NCBI GenBank assembly: GCA_046758505.1
Contig: JBHIAH010000007.1
Coordinates: 1 to 64,000 of the forward strand
DNA length: 64,000 nucleotides
Source: Candidatus Methylomirabilales bacterium
GTDB lineage: Bacteria; Methylomirabilota; Methylomirabilia; Methylomirabilales; CSP1-5
Direction of reading: 5' to 3'
The notes beneath the pieces are model-generated. The model did not search any database and was not told where the DNA came from. It saw only the letters and a list, made by a program, of their open reading frames with translations. How positions within the stretch are numbered: position 1 is the first letter of the stretch; each line of letters opens with the position of its first letter. Both the position numbers and the translations under genes were made by a program. This document shows, piece by piece, positions 20,775 through 50,336 of this stretch.

Positions 20775-21455
20775 TCAGGGACTCACAAACTTATATCCGA
20801 TGCCGTGCACCGTGAGAATGAAGCGGGGATTCTCCGGGTCCTCCTCCAGTTTCTGGCGAAGCTTGAGGATATGATTATCGACGGTCCGGGTGGTGGGATA
20901 CCGTTCGTAGCCCCAGATCTCGTCGAGCAGCCGCTCCCGCGCCAGCGCCTCGCCCTTGTGTTCGACAAAATACTTCATCAGCTCGAGCTCTTTTCGTGTC
21001 AACTGGATCTGGCGTTTTCCCTTGAGGGCGAGGCACTGTTTGAAGTCAATCCGGACAGATCCAAAGCTGCAGGATGTAACCTCTGACCTGCGTCCCGGCC
21101 GCCGCAGCACGGCCCGGACTCTGGCCAGGAGTTCCCGAACGCTGAAAGGCTTCCTCACGTAGTCGTCCGCCCCGAGCTCGAGCCCCAAGACCGTGTCCAC
21201 CTCGTCCCCCCGGGCCGTGAGCATGATGATGGGAACATTGATCCCCTTTTTCCGAAGTTCCCGGCACACGTCCCAGCCATTCATCCCTGGCATCAGAATA
21301 TCCAGGATAACCAGGTCAGGCTGCTCCTTCTGCGCCTTGGCGAGTCCCTCGCGGCCGTCGCAGGCCGTCAGGACGTCGTAGCCCTCGTAACTCAGGTTGT
21401 CTTCGAGGCCCATCAACATCTCCGGCTCATCATCGATGACGAGAATCCGCGTCAC
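20775..21455 (-). CDS. OmpR/PhoB-family response regulator
   Basis: LVIDDE, ILDILMPGMNG, GADDYVRKPF, RTVDNHILKLRQKLE, TVHGIGY. Confidence 0.95.
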   Translation of the reverse strand: MTRILVIDDEPEMLMGLEDNLSYEGYDVLTACDGREGLAKAQKEQPDLVILDILMPGMNGWDVCRELRKKGINVPIIMLTARGDEVDTVLGLELGADDYVRKPFSVRELLARVRAVLRRPGRRSEVTSCSFGSVRIDFKQCLALKGKRQIQLTRKELELMKYFVEHKGEALARERLLDEIWGYERYPTTRTVDNHILKLRQKLEEDPENPRFILTVHGIGYKFVSP

Positions 21456-23041: not shown

Positions 23042-23335
23042 AGCAGTTCTCCCGGCTTGAGGGCCTCACAACACACGGAGAGTATATCCGCACGTCGACG
23101 TCCACATCAAGGCCGGGGCGATTGGATACAACGGACATGCGTGTCGGCGTTCTCGCATCCGAAAACGGGATCCACGGCAAGGAGGGGTACGATCCGGACA
23201 AGGCCACTCGTGTACCCGCCGTCTCTCAGGCCATTCGTGAATACCAATGCCCTGAGGCAGAGACAGGGTGGAACCTCGCGAAGACAAAAGCGGAGAGGGG
23301 TAGAAAAACCCTACCCCTCTCCTCCCGAACCCTGC

Positions 23336-23596
23336 TTACCCTTCGGTTTCGATCCGGTCGAGCAGCAGGTCGAGCTCCTCGAGCATCTTCATTAACTTCT
23401 TTTTCGTCTTTGACGTCATCCCCATCTTTCCCATCTTCTTGGCCTTCATCATCTTCATCATGACCTGGTTCATCTTCATCTCGGTGTTCATCATCATTTC
23501 CATGACCGGTTCAAACACCGCCTCTTGGGCCATGACGATTTGCGCGGGGACGAGAAGCATTGCGGTCAGAACGACGGTGCCAACGATCTTCCGCAT
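23336..23596 (-). CDS. Small secreted methionine-rich protein
   Basis: Signal peptide; 15 Met in the approx. 63 aa mature part; strong RBS AGGAGGTG. Confidence 0.75.
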   Translation of the reverse strand: MRKIVGTVVLTAMLLVPAQIVMAQEAVFEPVMEMMMNTEMKMNQVMMKMMKAKKMGKMGMTSKTKKKLMKMLEELDLLLDRIETEG

Positions 23597-23621
23597 TCGG
23601 CTCACCTCCTTTCATCGGGAT

Positions 23622-24158
23622 TTACGGGGAGCGTGGCTCCTCCAGGAGGCGGCGGATCCTCGCCTCCATCTCGCCATAGCCCCCCTCGCCAATCCGGGTG
23701 TAACGGATCACCCCACGCTTGTCGATGAGGTGAAGGGTCGGCCAGTAACGGGTCCGGTACCGATTCCACGTGGCAAAATCGTTATCGAGGGCGACCGGAT
23801 ACGGGATCCCCAGGGCGCGACAGGCCGACGTCACCTTGTCCAGAGGCTTTTCCCAAGCGAACTCGGGCGAGTGGATCCCGATGACCACCAGGCCCTGGGG
23901 CCCGAATCGCCGATGCCAATCCACCAACTGGGGGATGGTGTGCCGGCAGTTGATTCACCCATAGGTCCAAAATTCCAAGAGGATCACCCGCCCCCGCAGA
24001 TCGGCCAGACGCACGGGCGAGGAATTGATCCACACGGTGTTGGTCAGTTCGGGGGCCGCCCGCCCTATCATGGATGCCGCTGCCACCCGCGGACCGAGAA
24101 GCGGCCCCCCCACGAGGACGAGAAGAAACCACCAACCGAAACGTCTCTTTCTTCCCAT
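23622..24158 (-). CDS. Thioredoxin-fold redoxin (DipZ/TlpA-like), probable selenoprotein (UxxC)
   Basis: ORFs 23955-24206 and 23622-23927 are in one frame; they read ILLEFWTYG-TGA-INCRHTIP, then VIGIHSPEF and YWPT...IGEGGY; TGA at 23955-23957 replaces the first Cys of CxxC. Confidence 0.88.
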
Positions 24159-24680: not shown

Positions 24681-25427
24681 TTAGAGGCGCTGGAAGAGCC
24701 ACGCGGGGGTGAAGCGGAGGGCAAAGGTGGACAGCAGGGTGAAGTAATCGCTGAGGAGCAGGACCCCCACGAGGATGAGAAAGACGCCGCTTGTGCGACT
24801 CACCCAAGGGAGGAGACGCTTGAACCGGGTGAAGAAGGCGAGGAACTGTCCGAAGAGCAACGCGCTGAGCAAGAAGGGGATGGCGAGGCCGGCGGCGTAA
24901 GCTGTCAGGAGGAGAATGCCTTGGCTGGCGTCCTGGGACGTACTCGCCATGACCAGAATCGACCCCAGGATGGGCCCGACACAGGGAATCCATCCGGCGG
25001 CAAAGGTCACCCCCACCAGGAAGGCCCCCACGTAGCCGCCGGGGTGACCCGTCAACTCCAGATGCCTCTCCCGCATGAGGAAGGGGAGGGGCAGCCACCC
25101 CGCGATGTGGAGGCCAAAGAGGATAATCAGGGCCCCGCCGACCTTGCGTATGGTGAGCTGATAATCAAACAGGAGCTGCCCGAGGGCCGTCGCCGACGCC
25201 CCGAAGGCGATGAAGATGACCGAGAAGCCGGCAATGAACGTCACGGCCCGCAAGAGGAGGTGGCGCCGATTCCTGGAATCGGCCACCGTGCCCTGAATCT
25301 CGTCCACGGAGAGACCACCCACGAAGGCAAGATACGACGGGATGAGGGGAAAGACACAGGGGGAAAGGAAGGAGAGCACACCCGCCCCCATGGCCACCAG
25401 GATCGATACCTGCGCCGCCGCAGTCAT
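24681..25427 (-). CDS. ccdA: Cytochrome c biogenesis / thiol-disulfide transporter CcdA
   Basis: SFLSPCVFPLIPSY and GWIPCVGPILG with the two conserved Cys; 6 TM. Confidence 0.92.
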   Translation of the reverse strand: MTAAAQVSILVAMGAGVLSFLSPCVFPLIPSYLAFVGGLSVDEIQGTVADSRNRRHLLLRAVTFIAGFSVIFIAFGASATALGQLLFDYQLTIRKVGGALIILFGLHIAGWLPLPFLMRERHLELTGHPGGYVGAFLVGVTFAAGWIPCVGPILGSILVMASTSQDASQGILLLTAYAAGLAIPFLLSALLFGQFLAFFTRFKRLLPWVSRTSGVFLILVGVLLLSDYFTLLSTFALRFTPAWLFQRL

Positions 25428-25567
25428 CTCGCCGAAACCGCCCCCTTCTCTCCCGCCTCCGTCCGGCTCCCCTCTTTCGATCCAAGCCATCCATCATGGT
25501 AATGGTCGCCGCGGTCTTTTGCAACCCTTGTCCCTCTCCCCGACGCGTGGCGTCCGGCGGCTCGGCC

Positions 25568-26091: not shown

Positions 26092-26907
26092 TCAGGACTG
26101 GGCCGTCTGGAAAAAGACGCGGGCGCACTGGAAGATCTCGTCCCACCCCACATCCGAGACGAGGGCGTAGGTGGTCTTCCCGCTTTCCCAGAGGAGGATC
26201 TGTTGCCCTTGATACTCGCCGCTCAGAAAGCTCCGCCCGTCTCGCCGGATCTCTGTCAGGCCGCTGAAATCCGCCCCATACCGGGGAAAGGCGAAGAGGG
26301 AAATGATGTTCCGTCCCTTTTCATACACGATATATCCCGCCCGCCGACCGCTCAGGCGCGCGACCCGTGCCCCCAGGAGCTGGATCCCCGATGTGCTGTA
26401 ATCGGGAACCCGGACGGAATACCCGAGTCGCCCCCGAACCCAGTGGGCGACCTGCTTGATGTTCTCACTGGGAAGCTCGGCAGGATTTTCCCGGAGGGCG
26501 AATTTCATGTGCTCCGACACCAGATCCGTCACCAGGGGGTGAAACCCGGGTCGGGAAGAAGGCTGCGCGACCAGATACCCGAGGGTCCCGCCGACGACGA
26601 AGAGAAGGATCGAAGCGGCCAACGCCAGGGACCAGGCCCGCCGGCCCCAGACGGCCGGGCGCGCAGGTCTCCCCTCGCTCTCCTCCGACTCCGCGATGGC
26701 AGACCTGAGCCTCTCCACGAGATGCGGCGGAACGGGTTCTCGAGCGACCGCCGCCCTGAGCCCCTCCCGGAATGCCCGTTCTCCTTCAACGACACTCCGA
26801 CAGGAGGGACATGCGTCAAGATGCCCCTCCACCTCGAGCATCTTCGAGGGCTCGAGCTCTCCGTCGCAATAGGCTTGAAGGTAGCGTGCAAATTCGTGAG
26901 CCGTCAT
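26092..26907 (-). CDS. Transmembrane anti-sigma factor with zf-HC2 (ZAS) domain
   Basis: YCDGEL...HLDACPSC, one TM helix, periplasmic domain; ATGA overlap with the sigma gene. Confidence 0.88.
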   Translation of the reverse strand: MTAHEFARYLQAYCDGELEPSKMLEVEGHLDACPSCRSVVEGERAFREGLRAAVAREPVPPHLVERLRSAIAESEESEGRPARPAVWGRRAWSLALAASILLFVVGGTLGYLVAQPSSRPGFHPLVTDLVSEHMKFALRENPAELPSENIKQVAHWVRGRLGYSVRVPDYSTSGIQLLGARVARLSGRRAGYIVYEKGRNIISLFAFPRYGADFSGLTEIRRDGRSFLSGEYQGQQILLWESGKTTYALVSDVGWDEIFQCARVFFQTAQS

Positions 26908-27455
26908 TGGTCCTCCTGGGAATTTCCTCCGCCCGTCGAGTACTCCTTCAGGGCGCCCCGCAGCGTCTGCCGACCCCGGTACAGCCGCGACATCACCGTC
27001 CCAATGGGACACCGGCAGATCTCCGCAATCTCCCGATAGCTACATCCCTCGAGGTCCGCCAGAACCACTGCCACCCGAAGCTTGGGGGGCAGGGCCTCGA
27101 TGGCCCGTTGGATGTCCTCCCCCGCCAGTCGATGGAAGAGATCGATCTCTGGGTCCCCGGGGACCACGCTGCCGACCCCTGCCTCCCGGTACACCCGCTC
27201 TTCATCAAAGTCGACCACGGGACGGGACGACTGGCGGATCCGATTGACAAAGAGACTATGCAAGATGGCAAAGAGCCAGGCCCGACAGTTGGTTCCCGGC
27301 TGGAACTGGTGGAAGAAGCGGTAGGCCCGGAGAAATGTCTCCTGGAACAGATCCTCCGCTTCGGTCTTATTCCGGGTCAGCCGGAGGGCCCCATTGTATA
27401 TACTGTTCATATGGACCAGGGCGGCTTCTTCAAATTCCTGCCGCTTCTGGTCCAT
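26904..27455 (-). CDS. ECF sigma factor (SigH/SigR-like)
   Basis: AEDLFQETFLRAYRFFHQFQPGTNCRAWLF region 2; SYREIAEICRCPIGTVMSRLYRGR region 4. Confidence 0.92.
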   Translation of the reverse strand: MDQKRQEFEEAALVHMNSIYNGALRLTRNKTEAEDLFQETFLRAYRFFHQFQPGTNCRAWLFAILHSLFVNRIRQSSRPVVDFDEERVYREAGVGSVVPGDPEIDLFHRLAGEDIQRAIEALPPKLRVAVVLADLEGCSYREIAEICRCPIGTVMSRLYRGRQTLRGALKEYSTGGGNSQEDQ

Positions 27456-27623
27456 CCCCTCAGGCCCCACGGAACCCTCCCCAGTGGAGGGGGTCCGGAG
27501 CCCACTGCCCGTTCCAAGAAGAAAACACCCCTCCCCCCGAAATATTCCCTCCGCATCCGGCTCCGGGCTTTTATCTTCTGCGAATTGCCCGCCGCTGTCA
27601 ACCGTGAAAGACCCCTCCCCCAG

Positions 27624-27830: not shown

Positions 27831-28880
27831 ATGAAGCGGACCCGAAGACAGACAATCATCACCTCGGTGCTGGGTCTCCTGCTCGCCACGGCCGGGGTCA
27901 GCGAGGCGCACCACGTGGTGCTCCAGAGCGGGCCGTTCCAGGCGATCATCCTCACCATTGTTGTACATCCGAAAAACGGCAAGCGCCTCTACCTGGGGTC
28001 CTTCGGGCGCGGGGTCTTCCGGACCACGGACGGGGGGAAGGTGTGGATCACCTCCAATAGCGGTTTGGAAAACCTGGAGGTGCAATCTCTCGCCATCGAT
28101 CCGCTTAGGCCGTCCACCCTCTATGCGGGCACGGACGCCGGGGTGTTCAAGACCACGAACGGCGGAGAGCGATGGGAGCTGGCCAGTACGGACGTCGCCG
28201 CGCGCAATATTCGGGCCCTGGCCATCGACCCCGCCCACCGTACGACGCTCTACGCCGGGACCGACGCCGGGGTCATGAAAAGCACGGACGGAGGGGCATC
28301 CTGGCGGGCGAGGAGCGACGGGCTCACCGCACCCGATGTCCGGGCCCTGGCCATCGACCCGAACACCCCCCACCGCCTGTATGCCGCGGCTTTCGGCGGG
28401 GTCTTTCTGAGCACGGATGGCGGGGGGCACTGGAGTGCCGTCACCCAGGGCATGGGGAACGAAAACATCCGGACCCTGATCCTCGATCCCCACAACTCCT
28501 CCACCCTCTATGCGGGTACGGCGACCCATGGGGTCTTCAAGAGCGAGGACGGTGGCACCTCGTGGCGCCCGGCTTCCCAGGGCATGGGAGAGGTGAGTGT
28601 CATGGCGCTCGCCATGTCCCCCTCCACCTCGACGCTCTACGTGGGGACGAGAGAGGGGCTATTCAAGAGCACGGATCGCGCGACCACCTGGGCACAGGTG
28701 GAACCCGATTCTTTCAGCCTTTCCATTACCTCGCTGGCCGCAGACCCTCGTCCGCCCGGAGTCCTTTACGTGGGGACGGGGGGACTCTTCTTCACAAGCG
28801 TGGATGGGGGGCGCAACTGGTCCGGGGTCCAGTGGGTGATTCATCCGGATCTTCCCTTTCAACATGTGGTCGAAAAGTAG
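27831..28880 (+). CDS. Secreted BNR/Asp-box beta-propeller protein (YCF48/VPS10-like)
   Basis: Signal peptide; seven repeats of LAIDP..P.TLYAGT..GVFKSTDGG.SW. Confidence 0.88.
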   Translation: MKRTRRQTIITSVLGLLLATAGVSEAHHVVLQSGPFQAIILTIVVHPKNGKRLYLGSFGRGVFRTTDGGKVWITSNSGLENLEVQSLAIDPLRPSTLYAGTDAGVFKTTNGGERWELASTDVAARNIRALAIDPAHRTTLYAGTDAGVMKSTDGGASWRARSDGLTAPDVRALAIDPNTPHRLYAAAFGGVFLSTDGGGHWSAVTQGMGNENIRTLILDPHNSSTLYAGTATHGVFKSEDGGTSWRPASQGMGEVSVMALAMSPSTSTLYVGTREGLFKSTDRATTWAQVEPDSFSLSITSLAADPRPPGVLYVGTGGLFFTSVDGGRNWSGVQWVIHPDLPFQHVVEK

Positions 28881-28895
28881 AAAGGAGGTGGCTTG

Positions 28896-29423
28896 ATGAA
28901 GGGATCGACCGTCCACCGGGTAGGTCTGGCCCTGGGAGCGCTTGCCGTTACGCTCCTCGTCTCGCACCCGAGTCCCGCCCAGCAGAAGAAGAAACAGATC
29001 AAGCCCGGGGTCTACGCCATGACGCTCCAGAAGGGGGACTCGATCGACGCGTCCATCGCCCGGGGCAAGAAGCTGTTTAACCAGATCGGCTGTGCCGGCT
29101 GTCACCCCCGGGGGGGAACCATCGGGGGGACCGCCTTCGACGTAGCAGGGAACCCGTTTCCGATCCCCATCCCCAAACTCCGGGGCTCGGCGCTCCACTT
29201 TCCTCGGATCGGGATGGGACCGGCCCGGGCCGTCCTGACCCTCGGGCAACTCAACGACCTTTGAAACACCGTCTTTCTTGGCCGTGAGCCAATCGATCCC
29301 AATTCCCAGGAGTGGGTAGACCTGTATGCATACGTCGCCTCTCTCACCCCGCAAGCCTACAAGGCGATGAAGGCGTGGGAGGCCAAGCGGCTGCAGTTGG
29401 AGAAGAAGGTTTTCGGAAAATAG
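28896..29423 (+). CDS. Monoheme cytochrome c of SoxA/TsdA-like type, probable selenoprotein
   Basis: Signal peptide, RGKKLF..IGCAGCH; in-frame TGA at 29262-29264 in TLGQLNDL-U-NTVFLGREPIDPNSQEWVDLYAYVASL; 52 further codons to TAG; hairpin TTGGC-CGTGA-GCCAA 13 nt after the TGA. Confidence 0.8.
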
Positions 29424-29473
29424 GGCGATGGCGGAACGTTCGGTGTGCCGTGCGAGACGAGAGGGGGTGAGGA

Positions 29474-30265
29474 ATGTCCTGGAGGGTATGGCCCCTGCTG
29501 GGCCTACTCGGTCTCATCGCGCTGATGACAACGTCCACGGGGAGTGCGGCTGACGAGGGGGACGTGAAGGTTGGGGAAGCCGTGTACAAAGAGATCTGCT
29601 TTGCCTGTCACGGGCTGACAGGTGGAGGGAATGGACCGAGCGCGCCCAATTTCAAACCCAGGCCGCAGGTCTTCGCCAATCCGGAGTACATGGCGCGGAT
29701 GCAACCCCAGTATATGTTCTGGGTGGTCAAATACGGCAAGCTCAAGGTCCTACAAAAGGAGATCCCCGGCTTCCCCCTGGGAGAGCCCCGATTCGTGGTG
29801 GACATGCCAGCGTTTGGCGACGTCCTCGAAGAGGACCAGATCCGTCGCCTCATCCAGATGGAGCATCTCTTGGTTGAAGGAAAAGCCATTCCCACGGACA
29901 TCCGCGAGATTTACGACGGGGCCTGCGCCACCTGTCATGGGCCGAACGGCCGGGGGGATGGAGAGCGAGCGGTCTCGCAGCCGGCCCCAAAGAGCTTTGT
30001 CAGCGAGATCCAGCCTCCACCGGCCAATTATACCAACGCCAAGCTCATGCAGCGCTTTAACGACGATTACCGGTTCACCCTGATCACGAAGGGGCGGCTG
30101 GCCGCAACCACGGAGGCCGGCTACACGACCATGCCCCCCTTCGGAGACGAACTGAGTGACCACGAAATCTGGAGCGTCATCCGGTACGTCCGGGAGACCT
30201 TTGTGAATCGGAAGGCGGCCCACGCGGCGAAGGGCCCGAAATCCCTTCGCCAATCGGCCCGCTAG
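29474..30265 (+). CDS. Diheme c-type cytochrome
   Basis: Signal peptide; CFACH and CATCH, each followed by MP(A/P)FG distal Met. Confidence 0.88.
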   Translation: MSWRVWPLLGLLGLIALMTTSTGSAADEGDVKVGEAVYKEICFACHGLTGGGNGPSAPNFKPRPQVFANPEYMARMQPQYMFWVVKYGKLKVLQKEIPGFPLGEPRFVVDMPAFGDVLEEDQIRRLIQMEHLLVEGKAIPTDIREIYDGACATCHGPNGRGDGERAVSQPAPKSFVSEIQPPPANYTNAKLMQRFNDDYRFTLITKGRLAATTEAGYTTMPPFGDELSDHEIWSVIRYVRETFVNRKAAHAAKGPKSLRQSAR

Positions 30266-30286
30266 ATGAGAACGACCGGGATCAGG

Positions 30287-30466
30287 ATGGATGCGGAAAC
30301 GTACTATTGTCCCCTGTGCCAGCGCGTCGTCGAAGAACACCTGCGGCCCATCCATGAGGTCGCCGAAGAATGGGTCATCGCGCACATCAAGGCGGCGCAC
30401 CCGGATTGGATCGAATCGAACGGCGCCTGCCCCACCTGCGTCCAGTTCTTCAGGAGCCGGCTGTGA
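30287..30466 (+). CDS. Small Zn-finger-like protein
   Basis: CPLC...H...IKAAHPDW..SNGACPTC; fills the gap in the operon. Confidence 0.65.
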   Translation: MDAETYYCPLCQRVVEEHLRPIHEVAEEWVIAHIKAAHPDWIESNGACPTCVQFFRSRL

Positions 30467-30578
30467 CTGCCGCCCGGTGCAGTCCCACCTTAGAAGCATT
30501 GGAGGTGATGCGGTGGTACGGTAAGGGGACGTTTTGGGACTTCGGCAGTGCTGTGCGCTTTGCGTAAGGAGGGAGAAA

Positions 30579-31157
30579 ATGCGTTGGAGTGTCGTCTGTA
30601 CGATGGCGCTGGCGGGCCTGCTGGCGTTCGCCAGCCCGCCAGTGGAGGCCGCGTATCACGGGTCCAATCCCTGTGCCGCGAACCCGTGCAATCCGTGTGC
30701 GGCCAAGGCCATGAATCCGTGTGCCGCCAATCCGTGTAATCCCTGTGCGGCGAAGAATCCGTGTGCCGCGAACCCGTGCAATCCGTGTGCGGCCAAGGGA
30801 GTTGCCCGAGGCCCCATCCCGGTGAGGACGGTGTGGGGTCAGGTGGTGTCGGCCTCTCCCCGATCCCTCGCGGTCAAGACGGATGGCAGGACGCTGAACC
30901 TGCAATTGACTCGGCGGACCGAGATCAAGATGGCCAGCCAGGGGATGGAGAGAAAGACCCTGCGCGATATCCGGCCCGGCGCCAGGGTTGCCGTTTCGTT
31001 CCTCGACAACAATGGCAGCCGGCGGGCCGCCTATGTCTACCTGACCCGAGCGGCGGCCAATCCGTGTGCCGCCAATCCGTGTAATCCCTGTGCGGCGAAG
31101 AATCCGTGTGCCGGAAGGTCGATGAACCCGTGTAACCCTTGCGGCGCGAGGAGGTAG
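30579..31157 (+). CDS. Secreted protein with 15 Asn-Pro-Cys repeats flanking a beta-rich (DUF5666-like) domain
   Basis: Signal peptide ending VEA; 9 NPC before and 6 after an approx. 85 aa domain; RBS AAGGAGG. Confidence 0.85.
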   Translation: MRWSVVCTMALAGLLAFASPPVEAAYHGSNPCAANPCNPCAAKAMNPCAANPCNPCAAKNPCAANPCNPCAAKGVARGPIPVRTVWGQVVSASPRSLAVKTDGRTLNLQLTRRTEIKMASQGMERKTLRDIRPGARVAVSFLDNNGSRRAAYVYLTRAAANPCAANPCNPCAAKNPCAGRSMNPCNPCGARR

Positions 31158-31168
31158 TCGAGGGCACC

Positions 31169-31198
31169 AGGGCCCTCCGGCGCAGTCCGGAGGGCCCT
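31169..31198 (+). terminator. 12-bp GC hairpin after the first NPC gene (terminator or mRNA stabiliser)
   Basis: AGGGCCCTCCGG-cgcagt-CCGGAGGGCCCT; no U-tract. Confidence 0.55.
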
Positions 31199-31227
31199 CG
31201 AACTTCACGCGAAAGGAGGTGAATGCG

Positions 31228-31632
31228 ATGCGAGTGCGGTCAATACGGTTAACCCTTGGGGTCCTGGCAACTGCTCTGGCCGTGGTCTTTGGAACTGCCG
31301 CGACCGGCCTAGCAGGTTCGGTTCCTCACAATCCATGCGCGGCCAAGGCGTTGAATCCGTGTGCGGCGAAGACGTTGAATCCGTGTGCGGCGAAGACGCT
31401 CAACCCGTGCGCCGCCAAGACCCTCAATCCGTGTGCGGCGAAGACGTTGAATCCGTGTGCGGCGAAGACGCTCAACCCGTGCGCCGCCAAGACCCTCAAT
31501 CCGTGTGCGGCGAAGACGTTGAATCCGTGTGCGGCGAAGGTCTTGAACCCGTGCTGCGCCAAGAGACTGAGCGCACAGCAGGCAAAGAACATCAACCCGT
31601 GCGCGGCCAAGAGTCCGACCTGCGGCAGATAG
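31228..31632 (+). CDS. Secreted NPCAAKxL-repeat protein
   Basis: Signal peptide then 11 NPC units; RBS AAGGAGGT. Confidence 0.85.
   Translation: MRVRSIRLTLGVLATALAVVFGTAATGLAGSVPHNPCAAKALNPCAAKTLNPCAAKTLNPCAAKTLNPCAAKTLNPCAAKTLNPCAAKTLNPCAAKTLNPCAAKVLNPCCAKRLSAQQAKNINPCAAKSPTCGR
31330..31569 (+). repeat. 10 x 24-bp coding tandem repeat (NPCAAKTL)
   Basis: Unit consensus AATCCGTGTGCGGCGAAGACGTTG; units 2-4 are identical to 5-7 (72-bp higher-order duplication). Confidence 0.95.
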
Positions 31633-31656
31633 GAATCGAATATCACACATCGCCAC

Positions 31657-31684
31657 GAGAGGCGGGTCTCTGGACCCGCCTCTC
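31657..31684 (+). terminator. 12-bp GC hairpin after the second NPC gene
   Basis: GAGAGGCGGGTC-tctg-GACCCGCCTCTC. Confidence 0.55.
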
Positions 31685-31699
31685 TGCTATACTCCCTTT

Positions 31700-32953
31700 A
31701 TGAGGCAATCTTGGAAAGGCATCCTGCTCGTCGGCACATGTCTCTGCCTGGTCTCGATGCTGCCGCTCGCCTGCTTTGCGCAGGGGGACCGCGCCGGAGA
31801 GCGCTGGACCGAGACAGCCCAGCTCGCCTTTCTCCAGAGGCACTGGCAGACCCCGATACCGCTGCAGGGCCCTCCTCCCACCACGTACTCGCAGCTCGAG
31901 GCTTCCCTCCAGCCGGAGAGCTGCGGCGTCTGCCACCCCCAGCAGTACCGGGACTGGAAGAGTACCCTCCACGCCCGGAGCATGGGGCCGGGCGTCCGGG
32001 GTCAGACCCAGGCCTTCGTCGGGCGGGATCCGGCCACAGCCCTCCTCTGCTACAGCTGTCATGCCCCCCTGGCGGAGCAGGCCGAGAAGCTCCAGGATCA
32101 GGGGACGTTCCTCGACAATCCCCAATTTAACCCCGATCTTCACCGCAAGGGGCTGACCTGTGCCGGATGTCACGTGCGGAACCACGAGCGGTACGGCCCC
32201 CCGTACCGGGAAGGAAGCCCGGCTGCCTCCCGGCCCCGGGAAGCACTCCCCCACCGCGGGGCCACGACGTCTCCGGCCTTCGAGCGGGCCGAGTTCTGTC
32301 GAAGCTGCCATCAGTTCGGGGAAGACGGCTATGCACTGAACGGAAAGTTCCTCGAGAATACGTACAACGAATGGAAAGCGGGACCGTACGCCCGGGCAGG
32401 GATTCAATGCCAGACATGCCACATGCCGGATCGGCGACACCTGTGGCGAGGGATCCACGACCCAGAACAGGTGAAGGGGGGGGTGACCATCCGCCTCACC
32501 ACGGGGAAGCCGCGATACCGCCCCGGTGAAACCGCCGAGGCGGTATTGGTCATCGAAAACAGTGGAGTCGGCCACTACTTCCCGACATACGTCACCCCCA
32601 AGGTCTTCGTCAGGGCAGAGCTGCTGGATCAGCGGGGAAAGGCGGTGAGGAACAGCCTCGAGGAGGCGGTGATCGGTCGCGAGGTCACCCTCGATTTGAG
32701 CCGGGAGCTCTACGACACCCGGATCCCGCCCCACCAGCGCTTCACCTTCCGGTACCACCGACCGATCAGGGGGAAGGGGTGGAGACTCCAGGTGCAGGTG
32801 ACGGTCCACCCGGATCATTTCTACGAGCGGTTCTTTACCTCGGTGCTGGAGGGCAGCACCTCTCCCGAAGGGCGAACGTTGCTCCAGGAGGCACTCGAGC
32901 GCACCCGGCGGTCCACCTTTTCGATCTTCTCGCGGAAGATCCCGATTTCGTGA
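31700..32953 (+). CDS. Pentaheme c-type cytochrome with C-terminal beta domain
   Basis: Signal peptide; CGVCH, CYSCH, CAGCH, CRSCH, CQTCH; WKSTLHARS; NSGVGHYFPT. Confidence 0.9.
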   Translation: MRQSWKGILLVGTCLCLVSMLPLACFAQGDRAGERWTETAQLAFLQRHWQTPIPLQGPPPTTYSQLEASLQPESCGVCHPQQYRDWKSTLHARSMGPGVRGQTQAFVGRDPATALLCYSCHAPLAEQAEKLQDQGTFLDNPQFNPDLHRKGLTCAGCHVRNHERYGPPYREGSPAASRPREALPHRGATTSPAFERAEFCRSCHQFGEDGYALNGKFLENTYNEWKAGPYARAGIQCQTCHMPDRRHLWRGIHDPEQVKGGVTIRLTTGKPRYRPGETAEAVLVIENSGVGHYFPTYVTPKVFVRAELLDQRGKAVRNSLEEAVIGREVTLDLSRELYDTRIPPHQRFTFRYHRPIRGKGWRLQVQVTVHPDHFYERFFTSVLEGSTSPEGRTLLQEALERTRRSTFSIFSRKIPIS

Positions 32954-32957
32954 GCGC

Positions 32958-33794
32958 ATGCTGATGTCCGGACTCGCGATCGCATTCGGATTCCTGCTCG
33001 CCGCCTCCCCCGTCCCATGTCCCGCGGACATGGTCCTCATTCCGGCGGGGCCGTTCATCATGGGGAGCGACCGGGCCGAGCGGGACTTCGGCTACCAGAT
33101 TGGCGGGGAACCCGCCCGCCGGTACCGCTGGTTTGATCACTGGGAGCTCCCCCGGCACACGGTGTCCCTCCCGGCCACCTGCATACAGAAGTTCCTGGTG
33201 ACGAATGAGGCGTACCGACGGTTCATCGAGGCGACCGGCCACCGCGTCCCCTCTATCTCCCGCGAGGCGTACCGACGGCAAGGCTACCTGGTACACCCGT
33301 ACACGGAGGTGGAGCGGTTCCTCTGGCACAGGGACAGATACCCCAAAGGGACCGGACAGCACCCGGTCGTCCTCGTCAGTCAGGCGGACGCGGGCGCCTA
33401 TTGCCGGTGGAGGTGGGCAGGGCGGATCTGCCGCCTCCCCAGCGAGCGGGAGTGGGAGAAGGGGGCCAGGGGGACCGACGGCCGCTATTTCCCCTGGGGA
33501 GACACGTGGCACCCGGAGTATCTGAACGCCGGCTATCGCATTGGGTATACGACGCCGGTCGGAAACTACCCGCAAGGGCAAAGCCCGTATGGACTCATGG
33601 ACGCTGCGGGCAACGTCTTCGAGTGGACACGGACCGAGTTCAGCCCGGGGAAGGCGGTCCTGAAAGGGTGCTCCTGGGACGATCAGGGGGGGATCTGCCG
33701 AGCCGCCGCCCGCCACGGGCGGGTCCGGGACGCGCGCCACATCCTCTTCGGCTTTCGGTGTGTCTGCGACGTGAAGACAGATAATGGGAGATGA
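32958..33794 (+). CDS. Formylglycine-generating enzyme (FGE/SUMF1) domain protein
   Basis: IPAGPFIMGS, HPVVLVS, RLPSEREWEKGARG, GNVFEW, FGFRC. Confidence 0.9.
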   Translation: MLMSGLAIAFGFLLAASPVPCPADMVLIPAGPFIMGSDRAERDFGYQIGGEPARRYRWFDHWELPRHTVSLPATCIQKFLVTNEAYRRFIEATGHRVPSISREAYRRQGYLVHPYTEVERFLWHRDRYPKGTGQHPVVLVSQADAGAYCRWRWAGRICRLPSEREWEKGARGTDGRYFPWGDTWHPEYLNAGYRIGYTTPVGNYPQGQSPYGLMDAAGNVFEWTRTEFSPGKAVLKGCSWDDQGGICRAAARHGRVRDARHILFGFRCVCDVKTDNGR

Positions 33795-33796
33795 GA

Positions 33797-34867
33797 ATGA
33801 ACGGATACGCCCTGAAGCACACGCTGATCCTCGGCCTGGTGGGGGTCTTTTTTCCCCTGGCCCGGGCCGCTGCACTCCCGGCGGGCCTGACCATCGATGG
33901 AGACCCGGTGATTACGGTCCTCCCGAAGGATGCCATCCCGGCCATCGACCAGCCCGCGTTTGTGTCGGTCCAGGAGGCCGATGCGTACCTCCGGGACAAT
34001 GAGCCGGTGCTGGGGGTCCGGCGAGGAGAGGTGGCGCGGGCCTACTCCCTCTGGCAACTCAACCACCATGAGATCGTCAATGACCGGGTAGGCAACCTCC
34101 CGCTCGCCATCACCTGGTGACCCCTCTGCTCGACGGGCATCGTGTATGTCCGACCCACACATCAGGGGAGGCCCCTCACCTTCGGCGTGAGCGGGATGCT
34201 GTGGAAAGACGCGCTGGTCATGTACGATCGAGAGACTGAAACCCTCTGGAGCCATTTCAACGCCAAGGCTATTCACGGCCCCCTCCAGGGGATGCGGCTC
34301 AAGCCCTATCCCGCGATCCATACGACCTGGGGGCAGTGGAAGCGGCTCTATCCGCACAGCCAAGTGCTGTCGAAGCGCTCCACTCTCGGCGTCCCCGAGG
34401 GCCGATACGACGTCTACCGCGGGTACATGGCGGATCCGAATCGCCTGGGCATCTTCGGGACGCGCAATCCAGACCCCACCCTCCCCGGAAAGGAATACGT
34501 CTTCGGCCTCACGCTCCACGAGGCGAGGGTGGCCTATCCGTTCCGCTTCTTGAGCCGCGCTCCGCTGGCCCACGATACCGTGGCCACCGAGCCGGTCCTG
34601 GTGGTCTTTGCGGCCCCCGAGGCGACCGCCGTGGCGTTCTCCCGCCGGTTGCGCGGGCAAACGCTGCAGTTCACCCATCTCCACCGGCGCAACGGGAATT
34701 GGGTGATGGAAGACACCGAAACCGGATCGCGCTGGCAGGCCCTCAAGGGCGAGGCCACGGCCGGACCCCTGAAAGGGTCCCGCCTCACTCCACTCCCGGG
34801 TCACCTGGTTTTTTGGTTCGCCTGGAAGGGATTCTACCCCTCGACCCGCCTCTGGCGGGGGCCTTGA
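33797..34867 (+). CDS. DUF3179-domain protein, probable selenoprotein (UPLC)
   Basis: ORFs 33791-34120 and 34142-34867 share a frame: KDAIPAID.P, HEIVND...ITW-TGA-PLCSTG, FGVSGML, MYDRETETLWS, FWFAW; hairpin CGGGCAT-CGTGT-ATGTCCG after the TGA at 34118-34120. Confidence 0.92.
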
Positions 34868-34949: not shown

Positions 34950-35141
34950 CCATCGGTCGGCGGCGGGACGCGGGGACCCGTCGCCCTCCGAGAGGCCGAC
35001 CTGGTTGAGGGGTCACACGTCTCGCAAAAAAATGCGTTAAATAATTTTTCTCCCTTTGTTATGCTGAACGGGGAGACATTGACCCGAGGCCGAGGGATGC
35101 AACGCAGTCCGAAACGCGGACGAAAAAAGGAGGCTTCGACA

Positions 35142-35633
35142 ATGCGAAGGCTCATGTGGTACAGAGTGATCAACACCTGCCTGATCGGGATGGTGATGCT
35201 CGTGACCGAACCGAGCGTGCTGGCAAGCAGCGAACCGTTTATCAAGACCCAGGGCAACGGGGTCACCATCGTCACGCTGACACAGACCCCCTGTCTGTTT
35301 CTCGAATCCGAGGAAAACCCGCAGGCCTATACCTCGCGGAAGAAGGCAGATTGCGTAGAGATCAACCGAAAGACGGCCGGGGAGCGGACGTTCAAGCCCC
35401 TCCATCTGAAAGCCGGGCGGTATATCTTTCGGGTAACCAACAAGAACGTTCCCTACGAACTCGGATTCTGGCTGCGGGGACAGGGCGTGGGCCGACTCAC
35501 CCTCCCGTCTGTCTCTGGGGGCGGCCTGGTCACAGGCAAGACGCAGGATTACGCCGTCACCCTTGTCAAGGGGAAGTACTACTACAGCTGTCCCCTCAAC
35601 CCGACCCCCAACTATCCCTTGACCGTTGAATAG
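35142..35633 (+). CDS. Secreted cupredoxin-like protein
   Basis: Signal peptide; LKAGRYIFRVTN, GKYYYSCPLNPTP; RBS AAGGAGG. Confidence 0.7.
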   Translation: MRRLMWYRVINTCLIGMVMLVTEPSVLASSEPFIKTQGNGVTIVTLTQTPCLFLESEENPQAYTSRKKADCVEINRKTAGERTFKPLHLKAGRYIFRVTNKNVPYELGFWLRGQGVGRLTLPSVSGGGLVTGKTQDYAVTLVKGKYYYSCPLNPTPNYPLTVE

Positions 35634-35658
35634 GGAGAGGGGGACAGGAGAATTCGGC

Positions 35659-36420
35659 ATGACCGCGAACGAAGGGGGCGAACCCACGGCGACCGCTTCA
35701 TCCGCTCCACCGCCGCATCAGCCCCCGAAGACGCCGGAGACAAAGCACGACTGGTGGCGACCGGTCGCGCTGCTGGCCGCCATCCTCGTCATTCTCGTCT
35801 TGGCCAAGGTCTTCGGGATCGGAGAGCGGCTCGGCGCTCTGCGCGAATGGATTCAGGGATTGGGACCGTGGGGGCCGGTAGCCTTCGTGGTTCTCTACGC
35901 CGCAGCAGTCGTTGCGGCCATTCCCGGCTCGGCGCTCACCGTCGCGGCGGGGGCCCTATTCGGGTCGGTCCTTGGAGTGATCCTGGTGATCAACGCGGCC
36001 ACCCTCGGGGCCAGCCTCGCCTTCCTGGTTGCCCGGTACTTCGCCCGGGACGCCATCGCCCGCCGGCTCTCCGCCAACGAGAAATTCCGGAAACTGGATC
36101 GGCTGACCGAAGAGCACGGCGCGATCATCGTCGCCCTGACCCGCCTGGTCCCCCTGTTCCCCTTCAACCTGCTCAACTACGGCTTCGGCCTCACGCGCGT
36201 CCCCTTCTGGACGTACGTGCTCTGGTCCTGGCTCTGCATGTTGCCCGGCACCATCCTGTACGTCGTGGGAGCAGATGCTTTTACCAAGGGCCTCGCCCAA
36301 GGTCGGGTCCCGTGGGGCCTGATGGGCGCCCTGGTCGTGATGGGGCTGATCCTCGCCTTCCTGGTCCGACACGCCCGCCAAACACTGAAGGAGAGGGAAG
36401 TCAGGACAAACGCCGAATAG
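35659..36420 (+). CDS. TVP38/TMEM64 (DedA/SNARE-associated) membrane protein
   Basis: IPGSALTVAAGALFG, LTRLVPLFPFNLLNYGFGLT, MLPGT. Confidence 0.92.
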   Translation: MTANEGGEPTATASSAPPPHQPPKTPETKHDWWRPVALLAAILVILVLAKVFGIGERLGALREWIQGLGPWGPVAFVVLYAAAVVAAIPGSALTVAAGALFGSVLGVILVINAATLGASLAFLVARYFARDAIARRLSANEKFRKLDRLTEEHGAIIVALTRLVPLFPFNLLNYGFGLTRVPFWTYVLWSWLCMLPGTILYVVGADAFTKGLAQGRVPWGLMGALVVMGLILAFLVRHARQTLKEREVRTNAE

Positions 36421-36448
36421 GACGACACTGCGAGAGGGGAGCTTTCCG

Positions 36449-37966
36449 ATGAGCCAGGTACCGGAGGTCCTGCCCAAAGACGAGCACAACAGACTGTTGC
36501 TATCCAATGTTCACCCCTACGATTGGACAAATCCGGACCCAGCACCCCAATACAACCTCGTCGTGATCGGCGCGGGCACGGCGGGGCTCGTGACGGCGGC
36601 AGGAGCGGCAGGGCTCGGCGGCCGGGTGGCCCTCATCGAAAAACACTTGCTGGGCGGCGACTGTCTCAACGTGGGTTGCGTCCCCTCCAAATGCATCATT
36701 CGATCTTCTCGCGTTTTCGGGGATATTCGCGAGGCCTCCGAGTTGGGCGTCCACGTTCCAGACGGCACGAAGGCGGACTTCCCCCTGGTGATGGAGCGCA
36801 TGCGACGCCTCCGGGCCCGCATCAGCCACCACGATTCGGCCCGGCGATTCCAGCAGTTGGGCATCGACGTCTTCCTCGGAGAGGGACAATTCACCAGTCG
36901 CAACACCCTCGCCGTGGACGGCAAGACGCTCCGGTTCAGCAAGGCCGTGATCGCGACCGGGGCGCGCGCCGCCGCGCCGCCGATTCCAGGGCTGGCTGAG
37001 GCTGGGTACCTGACGAACGAGACCATCTTCTCCCTGACGGAGCTCCCCCGACGCCTGGCCGTCATCGGAGCCGGTCCGATCGGCTGCGAGCTGTCCCAGG
37101 CCTTCCGCCGCTTTGGATCAGCGGTCTCCCTCCTCGAAGCCCAATCCCAAATCCTGACCCGGGAAGATCGAGACGCGGCTGAGGTCCTTCAGCGGGCCCT
37201 GGTCCAGGACGGGGTACACCTCGTCCTGGGCTGCAAGATCCTCAAGGTGGAGACCCGGGGGTCGGAGAAGATCATCCAGTTTGAAGGAGACGGAGCCTGC
37301 ACTGATCTTCCCGTGGATGAGATCCTCGTCGGCGCCGGACGCGCGCCCAACGTGGAAGGACTGAACCTGGAGGCGGCGGGAGTCGAACACACGAGGCACG
37401 GGGTACAGGTGAACGACTACCTCCAGACGACCAACCCCCGCATCTACGCCGCCGGCGACATCTGCCTCCCGTACAAGTTCACGCACACGGCGGATGCAAC
37501 GGCCCGCATCGTGATCCAGAACGCCCTCTTTCTCGGGCGGAAAAAATTGAGCGCACTGGTCATTCCCTGGTGCACGTACACCGACCCGGAGATCGCCCAC
37601 GTCGGGATGTACGAGCAGGATGCGGTGCACAAGGGCATCCCCGTCGCCACCTTCGTCAGACCGCTGCGGGAGGTCGATCGGGCCATTGCCGACGGCGAGG
37701 AAGAGGGCTTCGTCAAGGTGCATGTCAAGAAAGGGACCGATCGCATCCTGGGTGCCACGATCGTCGCCCGCCATGCCGGAGAGATGCTCAGCGAAATCAC
37801 GCTGGCCATGGCGGCACATATCGGCCTGGGGACCATTGCGAACGTCATCCATCCCTACCCCACCCAGGCCGAGGCCATCCGACAGGTGGCGGACGCCTAC
37901 AACCGCACCCGGCTGACGCCGGGAATCAAGAAACTGTTCACCCACTGGTTGACCTGGACGCGATAG
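36449..37966 (+). CDS. Mercuric-reductase-like FAD-dependent pyridine nucleotide-disulfide oxidoreductase
   Basis: GAGTAG, GGDCLNVGCVPSK redox disulfide, GAGPIGCE, HPYPT; lacks the MerA C-terminal Cys-Cys. Confidence 0.88.
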   Translation: MSQVPEVLPKDEHNRLLLSNVHPYDWTNPDPAPQYNLVVIGAGTAGLVTAAGAAGLGGRVALIEKHLLGGDCLNVGCVPSKCIIRSSRVFGDIREASELGVHVPDGTKADFPLVMERMRRLRARISHHDSARRFQQLGIDVFLGEGQFTSRNTLAVDGKTLRFSKAVIATGARAAAPPIPGLAEAGYLTNETIFSLTELPRRLAVIGAGPIGCELSQAFRRFGSAVSLLEAQSQILTREDRDAAEVLQRALVQDGVHLVLGCKILKVETRGSEKIIQFEGDGACTDLPVDEILVGAGRAPNVEGLNLEAAGVEHTRHGVQVNDYLQTTNPRIYAAGDICLPYKFTHTADATARIVIQNALFLGRKKLSALVIPWCTYTDPEIAHVGMYEQDAVHKGIPVATFVRPLREVDRAIADGEEEGFVKVHVKKGTDRILGATIVARHAGEMLSEITLAMAAHIGLGTIANVIHPYPTQAEAIRQVADAYNRTRLTPGIKKLFTHWLTWTR

Positions 37967-50289: not shown

Positions 50290-50322
50290 GGCGGGAGCCC
50301 CTCGGGGTGAGGGGCTCCCGCC
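50290..50322 (+). terminator. 14-bp intergenic hairpin
   Basis: GGCGGGAGCCCCTC-ggggt-GAGGGGCTCCCGCC. Confidence 0.5.
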
Positions 50323-50336
50323 CCCTCACGCACACT

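Follow-up and report, generated by a model that had tools for sequence, protein, structure and literature searches.

A SoxA/TsdA-like cytochrome c selenoprotein predicted in a conserved periplasmic gene cluster of Methylomirabilota

Introduction

Which chemistry could unite a set of genes that combines c-type cytochromes, selenoproteins and secreted proteins built from short cysteine repeats? The question is raised by a stretch of 64,000 nucleotides from a Candidatus Methylomirabilales bacterium (GenBank assembly GCA_046758505.1, contig JBHIAH010000007.1, positions 1 to 64,000), in the following referred to as the window. Here, nine co-oriented genes encode a BNR-type β-propeller, a monoheme cytochrome with a predicted selenocysteine (Sec), a diheme cytochrome, a small protein taken for a zinc finger, two proteins with NPC repeats (NPC1 and NPC2), a pentaheme cytochrome, a protein with an FGE fold and a DUF3179 protein (Table 1). 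The locus was read on contig C7 of a 2.99-Mb genome with a completeness of 96.8 %. The original prediction, made from the sequence letters, had regarded these genes as one extracytoplasmic module in which CcdA and a Sec-containing redoxin from a neighboring divergent unit supply reductant, the NPC proteins act as carriers or substrates and the cytochromes move electrons.

Cys-ligated c-type hemes are rare and are key to the S-S bond chemistry of bacterial sulfur oxidation, as in SoxA and TsdA. The reading of the locus that we favor, with a probability of roughly 45 %, builds on this chemistry: the cluster may specify a stress-regulated, Sox-like periplasmic thiol/selenol redox module, whose heme-selenolate enzyme would form or cleave S-S or Se-S bonds on the cysteines of the NPC proteins.

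A Predicted Selenoprotein Hidden by Truncation

The monoheme cytochrome, hereafter the Sec-cytochrome, is read as a protein of 176 amino acids across an in-frame TGA. A search of 5.8 billion proteins with this query returned 180 homologs, and all 120 of those listed are short (103-134 aa, query coverage 52-70 %); the 14 that were fetched stop without exception at ...NDL or ...NDM, the last residue before the UGA. At the level of the genomes, each of the 13 matches with E <= 5e-59 among 251 genomes of the phylum contains exactly one in-frame TGA and aligns up to residue 172-175. The sequence past the UGA, NTVFLGREPMDPNSQ..., is conserved in the orthologs, the segment N-T-V-F-L-G-R-E-P-M-D-P-N-S-Q being nearly invariant. 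A profile search of 1.84 billion representative sequences gave 1281 relatives at E <= 1e-3, and in the best 150 of these, which were examined, the Sec column holds Cys in 126 cases, Gly in one and a gap in 23 truncated or multidomain proteins.

The UGA is followed by a hairpin that resembles a Sec insertion sequence (SECIS). It is short, and binding of SelB to it is putative. As judged from a fold of the alignment with five pairs, the hairpin is kept in all 12 orthologous stretches; one C-G pair has become U-A at synonymous third positions in three of the 12 sequences, and one pair is broken in two. The genome encodes tRNA-Sec as well as SelB (333 bits against a cut-off of 242), and Sec decoding in this organism is plausible from its gene content, with TGA doubling as ordinary stop codon of four cluster genes. 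The alternative of a true stop followed by a separate gene was discarded: the part behind the UGA lacks both a start and a ribosome-binding site of its own, stays in frame in every case and forms one continuous sequence with Cys in the 126 homologs. A conserved UGA with coding sequence behind it, Cys homologs, a SECIS-like hairpin and the Sec machinery, i. e. the marks of a bacterial selenoprotein, are all present. Judged by these sequence features, the cytochrome represents a selenoprotein family that is hidden in databases through truncation at the UGA, and the uniformly shortened entries show that gene callers mis-annotate it systematically.

Kinship with SoxA and TsdA

What kind of cytochrome carries this Sec? 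In an alignment of 65 family members, C67, C70, H71, P104 and C/U124 are the only invariant residues. Comparison of the Sec clade with the Cys clade by hhalign gave a probability of 99.75 (E 2e-27), with U falling on the invariant Cys. The SoxA/TsdA cytochrome c domain PF21342 is matched by 55 of the 65 sequences, the window protein not being among them. The profile of the Cys clade finds TsdA (E 2e-13) and SoxA (E 4e-13), and its invariant Cys aligns with the Cys of the TsdA motif 'RIGDC', i. e. Cys123. According to excerpts of Grabarczyk et al. 2015 (PMC4423706), this residue is the sole Cys of TsdA outside the heme motifs, ligates the heme and forms an S-thiosulfonate intermediate. With the profile of the Sec clade alone, U is placed on Cys114 of SoxA (1h31), and a weaker profile alignment puts the Sec column on a Met in the C-terminal domain of cytochrome c peroxidase. 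Both residues are presumably heme ligands, Cys114 of the R. sulfidophilum SoxA binding heme 1 and the Met being an axial ligand.

The fold leads to the same enzymes. An AlphaFold model of the Sec-cytochrome (pLDDT 90) submitted to Foldseek retrieved TsdA on ranks 1-7 (E 8e-4 to 5e-3, probability 1.00), followed by cytochrome c peroxidases and SoxAX. Sec124 occupies the position of the catalytic distal Cys heme ligand, via the Cys clade in the case of TsdA Cys123 and directly in the case of SoxA Cys114. Membership by curated family threshold is not reached, while homology is borne out by profile and fold; with TIGR04484 (cut-off 110), the relatives P0143 and P0128 reach 97.6 and 86.7 bits, respectively. 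Judging from these comparisons, the Sec-cytochrome is of a divergent SoxA/TsdA type and has its Sec at the heme-ligand position.

This result amends the original prediction in two respects. The protein had been counted among the electron-moving cytochromes, yet with Sec at the catalytic-Cys position of a SoxA/TsdA-type fold it is not an anonymous carrier. Similarly, the statement that soxYZB and tsdB are not recognizable stands for direct family matches, but not for the Sec-cytochrome with its divergent SoxA/TsdA character. That the set matches no named pathway agrees with the genome, in which, at 96.8 % completeness, SoxY (PF13501), SoxB (TIGR04486) and the canonical SoxA/TsdA domain (PF21342) were not found.

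Conservation of the Cluster

Every open reading frame (ORF) of the nine-gene set was found in place, with domains backed by Pfam or NCBIfam, in one orientation and with gaps from a 4-nt overlap up to 112 nt. The divergent unit was likewise recovered with its extracytoplasmic function (ECF) sigma factor, zf-HC2 anti-sigma factor, CcdA, UxxC redoxin and Met-rich ORF. Near-universal signal peptides had been predicted as well; by inspection, eight of the nine proteins have signal-peptide-like hydrophobic N-termini, the zinc-finger ORF being the exception.

Two routes were followed to learn whether these genes recur together. For the first, pentaheme orthologs were collected from relatives and from 185,579 species genomes, which gave 80 loci with neighbors considered within 6 kb; for the second, the Sec-cytochrome served as seed in the 251 genomes of the phylum, and 10 loci were taken for neighborhood comparison. 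The tally of relatives includes the unpublished genome G021 and that of the 251 genomes includes G075; the sequences of both are left out. Neighbors were called by tblastn with the window proteins and by Pfam scans of ORFs filtered by GC content at third codon positions (GC3), since in these high-GC genomes shadow ORFs overwhelmed the de novo clustering of stop-to-stop ORFs in the surroundings of the pentaheme gene.

With both seeds, cluster genes were found together in other genomes, contrary to the lack of co-occurrence that would have spoken against the original prediction. In all 10 Sec-cytochrome loci, the BNR gene lies directly upstream and the diheme gene downstream of the seed. An NPC protein is encoded in nine, the sole miss lying at a contig end, and both an FGE-fold gene and a TlpA-like redoxin between diheme and NPC1 are found in seven. 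The pentaheme gene is present in five of these loci, the ECF/anti-sigma pair in two (L142 and L148; also in the further locus L114) and DUF3179 in one. Around the 80 pentaheme genes, NPC proteins (18 loci), FGE (13), the TlpA-like redoxin (13) and the cupredoxin-like ORF (9) are the most frequent companions, followed by ECF sigma (6), BNR (4), diheme (4), Sec-cytochrome (3) and DUF3179 (2); the remaining loci have none of the cluster genes next to the pentaheme gene. The order trio (BNR, Sec-cytochrome, diheme), redoxin, NPC1, (pentaheme), FGE is repeated across families of the phylum. Within the same order, genome G017 shows NPC-BNR-SecCyt-diheme-NPC-pentaheme-FGE and G019 NPC-NPC-pentaheme-FGE-DUF3179, and G010 of the same genus has pentaheme-FGE-cupredoxin-like-VTT; NPC2 orthologs were seen in G017, G019, L144 and L148. 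As a conserved periplasmic system, the cluster was found in Methylomirabilota, Binatia, Tectomicrobia, Acidobacteriota and Gammaproteobacteria. Taken together, these comparisons support the nine genes as one conserved extracytoplasmic cluster.

Its members are not equally firm. The 66-aa ORF is the weakest, since it has no tblastn match in any of the 90 related loci and its zinc-finger matches are weak; of the small zinc-finger gene that had been predicted, the ORF is present, but its conservation in the cluster was not found in these loci. In Rokubacteria-type loci, a Sec-containing TlpA-like redoxin sits in its place. The pentaheme gene is an optional member. Downstream, the cluster probably extends past position 34867 to the cupredoxin-like ORF, because the latter directly follows the FGE gene in G010 and accompanies the pentaheme gene in nine of the 80 loci, among them that of the cultured Motiliproteus, where the two genes adjoin.

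The NPC-Repeat Proteins

NPC repeats place one Cys every 5-8 residues, with small flanking residues and a Lys. Single polypeptides in which such repeats are placed around the Cys form of the cytochrome domain are found in Motiliproteus, Casimicrobiaceae and many others; the Motiliproteus fusions are labelled 'hypothetical protein' in RefSeq, and one fusion from a Rokubacteria-type locus exceeds the PF21342 threshold. At least two NPC motifs occur in 60 of the best 150 family representatives, and one member of the Sec clade, the G017 ortholog, has an NPC tail. A SoxA-like domain is encoded in 15 of the 80 pentaheme loci, all of which also have NPC repeats, mostly in fused form; NPC repeats alone occur in eight loci, and 57 lack both, which makes the pentaheme gene a poor marker for the cluster. 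In 18 of the 80 loci, the pentaheme gene has an NPC gene directly upstream. The NPC proteins are probably the thiol partners of the Sec-cytochrome, and the reading as carriers or substrates, served by CcdA and the Sec-redoxin as reductant line, remains the most economical one.

The core of NPC1 gave DUF5666/CusF-like structural leads with TM-scores of 0.42-0.52 (Atlas model, pLDDT 0.58), one Atlas structural match reaching the bar for DUF5666. The model of the Cys-every-fifth peptide CefA (NF038108) matched neither NPC1 nor NPC2, and the NPC tail of a relative scored 27.9 bits (cut-off 30).

Cytochrome-P460-domain proteins are encoded in related clusters (L141:8938-9576, L148:6850-7353 and L053:12188-12802), that of L141 beginning with NPC-type motifs. 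These neighbors may hint at a link to hydroxylamine or nitric oxide chemistry, and the motifs on the L141 protein suggest that NPC may be a more general periplasmic module.

Proposed Mechanism

The module could be understood as the front end of a Sox system rebuilt from different parts. At its catalytic center would stand a SoxA/TsdA-type monoheme cytochrome, in which the heme-ligating catalytic Cys is replaced by Sec124. By analogy, the heme-chalcogenolate site would couple the two-electron formation or cleavage of an S-S bond, here possibly Se-S, to c-type hemes, and the diheme cytochrome might carry the electrons to or from the respiratory chain. Instead of SoxY, the cysteines of the NPC repeats may serve as thiol partner. 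CcdA and the Sec-containing TlpA-like redoxin would then constitute a second line, fed from the cytoplasm, that resets the NPC cysteines, analogous to the roles of SoxV and SoxS for SoxY. The MccSep-like pentaheme cytochrome, the FGE-fold protein, DUF3179 (UxxC), the BNR propeller and the cupredoxin-like protein are conceivable accessory parts for processing or binding, while the divergent ECF sigma/anti-sigma pair probably acts as an envelope-stress switch that turns the module on.

Several observations weigh against this proposal. The TM-scores of the Foldseek matches are modest (0.42-0.44), and the window cytochrome matches neither PF21342 nor TIGR04484 at E <= 0.01 and stays below every curated threshold, so that its link to SoxA/TsdA is transitive. 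TsdA binds thiosulfate through Arg109, Arg119 and Ser127, of which Arg119 shows no variation across TsdA and SoxA, as stated in excerpts of the structural work (PMC4423706). These residues are not conserved in the Sec-cytochrome, where Leu120 and Phe128 replace Arg119 (-4) and Ser127 (+4), and Arg109 (-14) is without counterpart; thiosulfate is therefore an unlikely substrate, the chemistry may differ, and the Sec-cytochrome probably acts on something other than the thiosulfate of TsdA. The AlphaFold model holds no heme, and the Fe-Se ligation is what we infer from the position of Sec124. ECF control is suggested by adjacency, which is seen in two of the 10 loci. Moreover, the cluster is patchy: it occurs in 13 of the 251 phylum genomes and, within the genus, in one of 14, the window genome, a pattern more in keeping with an accessory function in stress or detoxification than with core sulfur metabolism. 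Together with the missing thiosulfate site and the sigma-factor context, this distribution favors a role in stress or detoxification over core lithotrophy. Finally, some neighbors point to metal handling, namely the CusF/DUF5666-like NPC1 core, cupredoxin-like proteins and the Met-rich protein.

A more far-reaching version of the proposal appears doubtful. Here, a SoxA-like heme-selenolate enzyme, as a natural Sec-ligated c-type cytochrome, would load or unload S or Se species (or disulfides) on the poly-Cys 'beads-on-a-string' of the NPC proteins, in a widespread, previously unrecognized carrier pathway that is wired to the respiratory chain and to the Sec-dependent CcdA/TlpA line.

Alternative Explanations

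Metal buffering and oxidant scavenging are serious rivals. The NPC repeats might constitute a secreted, metallothionein-like thiolate sponge for periplasmic buffering and detoxification of Cu(I), or of Hg, Cd or As, with the CusF-like core and the cupredoxin-like and Met-rich proteins binding or passing on copper, the cytochromes oxidizing or reducing the bound metal, and CcdA and the redoxin keeping the thiols reduced as in Scs-type copper tolerance. Such a function would suit the DUF5666/CusF-like leads for NPC1, the cupredoxin leads and the UniRef copper-domain name of the protein downstream of DUF3179, the secreted Met-rich ORF, the gene with a C-x2-H-x2-M motif and a CarboxypepD_reg domain upstream of BNR in five of 10 loci, and the MerA-like flavoprotein and DedA/VTT protein further downstream; the adjacent ECF sigma factor and the patchy accessory distribution fit as well. 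Yet every metal-related assignment is a lead below the threshold for naming. In the cupredoxin-like protein, the His and Met expected of a type-1 copper site are missing, the best model for the MerA-like protein is one for FAD oxidoreductases in general and not MerA, and neither CopA nor Cus nor multicopper oxidase genes turned up in the loci that were annotated. A two-component system of the window (20775-23041) and a resistance-nodulation-division (RND) pump beside the Motiliproteus cluster match generic models only, with no metal-specific signal. The metal reading also leaves the fusion of a SoxA/TsdA-type catalytic heme with invariant Cys/Sec to NPC repeats unexplained. Overall, metal buffering is rather unlikely to be the function of the cluster.

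Alternatively, the NPC and Met-rich proteins could be a sacrificial sink for periplasmic hypochlorite, peroxide or reactive nitrogen species, to be re-reduced by the heme-selenolate enzyme with cytochrome electrons and by CcdA and the Sec-redoxin. Such a sink would resemble the Met-rich peptide/MsrP system of Azospira, which is reportedly under SigF-NrsF control. In the window, the Met-rich ORF belongs to the same divergent unit as sigma and anti-sigma factor, and the pairing of ECF sigma factor and ZAS-motif anti-sigma factor returns in L142, L148 and L114; three Sec-based redox proteins and the P460-domain proteins of related loci, one with NPC motifs, would also be in keeping with a scavenging system. 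However, the locus has no gene for a methionine sulfoxide reductase or a peroxidase, the regulation is itself deduced from gene positions, and the idea overlaps with the favored Sox-like module, as it employs the same enzyme in reductive direction, rather than excluding it; on its own we judge it quite unlikely. Improbable is a third view, according to which there is no single system and the BNR/Sec-cytochrome/diheme trio, the pentaheme/FGE/cupredoxin-like unit and DUF3179 are merely juxtaposed, sharing little beyond their periplasmic location and the heavy use of Sec by the host. The very large selenoproteomes reported for Methylomirabilota in excerpts of a review (PMC13188914) would allow for this, as would the absence of pentaheme from five of 10 and the presence of DUF3179 in one of 10 Sec-cytochrome loci, the 57 of 80 pentaheme loci devoid of NPC and SoxA-like domain, and the unrelated neighbors of the pentaheme gene in all four sampled annotated loci that lack cluster genes. 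Against it stand the gene order recurring across families of the phylum, the tight spacing in the window, and the NPC proteins, which link the two halves by fusion to the SoxA-like domain on one side and by their position directly upstream of pentaheme (18/80) on the other.

Relation to Known Systems

How does the Sox-like module compare with systems already described? With SoxA and TsdA, i. e. PF21342 proteins such as TsdA of Allochromatium vinosum and SoxAX, the Sec-cytochrome shares the class-I cytochrome c architecture with CXXCH and an invariant chalcogen about 53 residues downstream, a c-type cytochrome partner encoded next door and a thiol acceptor, here putative, in form of a protein Cys with small flanking residues. 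Unlike these enzymes, the window protein has Sec for Cys, a score below threshold and no Arg/Arg/Ser for thiosulfate binding. The SoxY and SoxB of a Sox system were not found in the window genome, and its acceptor candidates are multi-Cys NPC repeats that are often fused to the enzyme; in contrast to Sox and Tsd, the system also appears stress-regulated and is patchily distributed. SoxV and SoxS are the CcdA-type protein and the periplasmic thioredoxin of the Sox system, and ScsB, ScsC and ScsD are copper-tolerance proteins. The combination of CcdA with a TlpA-like periplasmic redoxin beside the cluster resembles both sets, except that the redoxin of the window is a predicted selenoprotein (UxxC). 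With CefA, the Cys-every-fifth ribosomally synthesized and post-translationally modified peptide (RiPP), the NPC proteins have a short-period single-Cys repeat in common, but their repeats sit on secreted folded proteins rather than short precursors, and the score of the relative's NPC tail is below the cut-off. In L148 and L114, a radical-SAM gene is found at a distance of a few kb from the cluster, but none adjoins the NPC genes of the window.

Periplasmic heme, thiolate and selenium chemistry are also combined in MccSep/ExtKL from Geobacter sulfurreducens (PDB 9WT8). As reported in excerpts of a 2026 structural study (PMC13510729), this polysulfide reductase has one heme of the His/Cys type as well as a Sec that takes part in catalysis, and is thus an example of a Cys-ligated c-type heme in polysulfide respiration. 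In the window cluster, by contrast, Sec is found on a separate SoxA-like cytochrome and on the TlpA-like redoxin, not on the pentaheme protein. An experimentally confirmed, UGA-encoded Sec as natural axial ligand in place of an invariant Cys is described in excerpts of work on a cytochrome P450 from Entotheonella (bioRxiv 2024; PMC11703216), the database entries of which are truncated at the UGA as well. That protein is a cytoplasmic b-type heme monooxygenase from a small clade, whereas the window protein is predicted to be periplasmic, with covalent c-type heme, a SoxA/TsdA fold and His as the other ligand.

Compared with the Cys-ligated cytochromes of the SoxA/TsdA type, the Sec-cytochrome appears to be a novel form with Sec in place of Cys, encoded in a conserved and previously undescribed periplasmic cluster. 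The table of a May 2026 review (PMC13188914) contains as cytochrome selenoproteins only ExtKL, the GSU2204 family and the octaheme tetrathionate-reductase family, and the word 'cytochrome' appears three times in the text of this review; relative to the table, the selenoproteome is enlarged by the Sec-cytochrome family. Cytochromes are not mentioned in the main text of the BSepDB paper. In the full-text literature covered, we found neither a Sec-containing cytochrome c of the SoxA/TsdA or monoheme type nor any account of NPC proteins; Haft & Tolstoy 2025 (mSystems) and Deng 2026 with supplements, which may list the family, do not belong to this literature. If the proposed Fe-Se ligation is true, natural Sec-heme ligation would be widened from one P450 clade to c-type cytochromes, and the Sec-for-Cys swap would lend itself to studies of how potential and reactivity are tuned by the axial chalcogen. 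For experiments, the NPC proteins fused to the Cys-form domain in the cultured Motiliproteus offer a tractable way into the system; Motiliproteus coralliicola has TlpA, the NPC-cytochrome, the pentaheme protein and the cupredoxin-like protein.

Further Components of the Locus

The features of the locus are compiled in Table 1.

Table 1. Genes and elements of the cluster, its downstream extension and the divergent unit (window coordinates).
Feature	Position	Strand	Remarks
BNR/Ycf48-like β-propeller, secreted	27831..28880	+	Pfam PF15902/PF14870/PF02012
Monoheme SoxA/TsdA-like c-type cytochrome, predicted selenoprotein	28893..29423	+	CAGCH residues 67-71; Sec124 = TGA 29262-29264
SECIS-like hairpin	29278..29292	+	5-bp stem, loop CGUGA, 16 nt past UGA
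Diheme class-I cytochrome c	29474..30265	+	PF13442 x2
66-aa ORF, CPLC...CPTC, no signal peptide	30266..30466	+	weak zinc-finger matches below cut-offs
NPC1: signal peptide, NPC repeats, small beta-rich core, NPC repeats	30579..31157	+	no family in Pfam/NCBIfam
NPC2: signal peptide and ~11 NPCAAKxL octapeptide repeats	31219..31632	+	single Pfam match, compositional 'Cornifin'
Pentaheme cytochrome with C-terminal Ig-like domain, distant MccSep/ExtKL homolog	31700..32953	+	five CXXCH
Secreted FGE-fold (SUMF) domain protein	32958..33794	+	PF03781, 146 bits
DUF3179 predicted selenoprotein, W-U-P-L-C	33791..34867	+	PF11376, 290 bits; TGA 34118-34120
Cupredoxin-like secreted protein, invariant S-C-P-L-N-P-T-P motif	35061..35633	+	cupredoxin assignment tentative
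ECF sigma factor, divergent from the operon	26904..27470	-	PF04542 and PF08281
Membrane anti-sigma factor, H-x3-C-x2-C (zf-HC2)	26092..27012	-	PF13490; NF052375 and RsrA matches below cut-off
CcdA/DsbD-type transmembrane thiol-reductant transporter	24681..25490	-	PF02683
TlpA/ResA-like periplasmic redoxin, predicted selenoprotein, W-T-Y-G-U-I-N-C	23622..24158	-	PF00578 and PF08534; TGA 23955-23957
Secreted Met-rich small protein	23336..23605	-	no family; from translation

The pentaheme protein scores 53.3 bits against NF040886 (MccSep/ExtKL; cut-off 250) and thus stays below the family threshold, while its alignment with PDB 9wt8 (E 4e-10, profile positions 47-336) covers all five hemes and the Ig-like domain. 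The position of MccSep Cys239, the ligand of heme 2, is taken by Glu219 (invariant LENTYNEW) and that of Sec325 by Tyr297 (invariant GHxFPTYVTPK), and the mature protein has no Cys outside its CXXCH motifs. A TlpA-like redoxin often precedes the pentaheme gene (13/80 loci), and L148:12550-14166 encodes a natural fusion of a TlpA/AhpC-type redoxin domain (WCPAC) with a pentaheme MccSep-like cytochrome. In the four sampled, Pfam-annotated loci without cluster genes (L089, L070, L077 and L101), the neighbors of the pentaheme gene are without relation to the cluster and include peptidase M1, GGT, a nitrilase-family hydrolase, TsaE and peptidase M20.

Among the other proteins of the forward strand, the BNR propeller reaches 168 bits with NF045728, just short of the cut-off of 175, and has HHVVLQSGPF where most orthologs have the N-terminal motif N-H-V-V-M-H-G-G-P-F. 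The diheme cytochrome is the presumed electron partner of the Sec-cytochrome; its best sequence match in the PDB is 6h5l_B, the diheme partner of the Kuenenia HAO-like complex (5e-12), and not TsdB, as which it had been considered. The FGE domain that had been predicted is present, but the closest solved structures are the non-catalytic FGE-fold type, with CalU17, ToxD and SUMF2 for the protein and the inactive paralog SUMF2 (4e-8) and PorK for its C-terminal 95 residues, true FGEs following at E 0.03; these affinities suggest that it may bind rather than catalyze. As to the catalytic, copper-binding Cys pair that FGEs have near the C-terminus, the Cys of its 'KGCSW' is not kept in the G017 ortholog. 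The W-TGA-P-L-C of DUF3179 is also found in L142 and L114, and the family is already catalogued as a UxxC/T selenoprotein in excerpts of the above review (PMC13188914). The UniRef name of the cupredoxin-like protein is 'Blue (type 1) copper domain'.

The gene of the cupredoxin-like protein overlaps by 8 nt with that of a VTT/DedA-family membrane protein, and next comes a gene for a MerA-like FAD disulfide oxidoreductase, which passes the generic model NF004991 with 861 bits, but not MerA (35626-37966, forward strand). A pair of this type is also found close to the pentaheme gene of L044, and a MerA-like gene close to that of L048, L053 and L114. A secreted DUF302 protein is encoded between the NPC genes and FGE, or beside the pentaheme gene, in L141 (9623-10111), L143 (5929-6393) and L041.

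In the divergent unit, the ECF sigma factor has its best NCBIfam match in SigH_actino (155 bits, cut-off 252). The redoxin shows ResA/TlpA matches with its TGA in the first position of the CxxC motif, and the in-cluster redoxins of L141, L142, L143 and L148 likewise carry W-TGA-P-H-C, read as W-U-P-H-C. A strong terminator-like hairpin at 23292-23322 closes the unit after the Met-rich ORF, while a scan for sigma-70 promoters and terminators revealed nothing above chance within the forward operon. A common ECF-type promoter upstream of the BNR genes was considered and, with no completed motif search, set aside, since five of 10 loci have another gene there and no promoter region. This conserved gene, seen in L140, L143, L145, L146 and L147, encodes ...P-V-N-C-D-V-H-E-W-M-H..., with a presumably amicyanin-like C-x2-H-x2-M spacing, and then a CarboxypepD_reg domain; it is absent from the window, where the divergent ECF sigma gene stands in its place. 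For the stretch itself, four DNA runs from one study with the label hydrothermal vent metagenome, three of which may be its source, and no RNA run are listed.

Other Features of the Window

Further traces of Sec genes are found downstream. The ORF at 47504-47848 (+) contains only the C-terminal part of the iodothyronine-deiodinase family (PF00837, positions 136-217), and its missing N-terminus suggests a further UGA-interrupted selenoprotein gene upstream. Likewise, the ORF at 60845-61474 (+) covers the C-terminal third of the glycine/sarcosine/betaine reductase selenoprotein B (PF07355, positions 212-345) and is probably another Sec gene truncated at a UGA; a similar PF07355 fragment adjoins the pentaheme gene in L053. 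In addition, the window encodes a 432-aa fusion of a cupredoxin domain (pseudoazurin/amicyanin-like) with c-type cytochrome domains, one of them weakly SoxX-like (50307-51605, +), a second ECF sigma factor (45816-46424, -) and, at 1866-2171 (+), a ParE-like toxin from a type II toxin-antitoxin pair.

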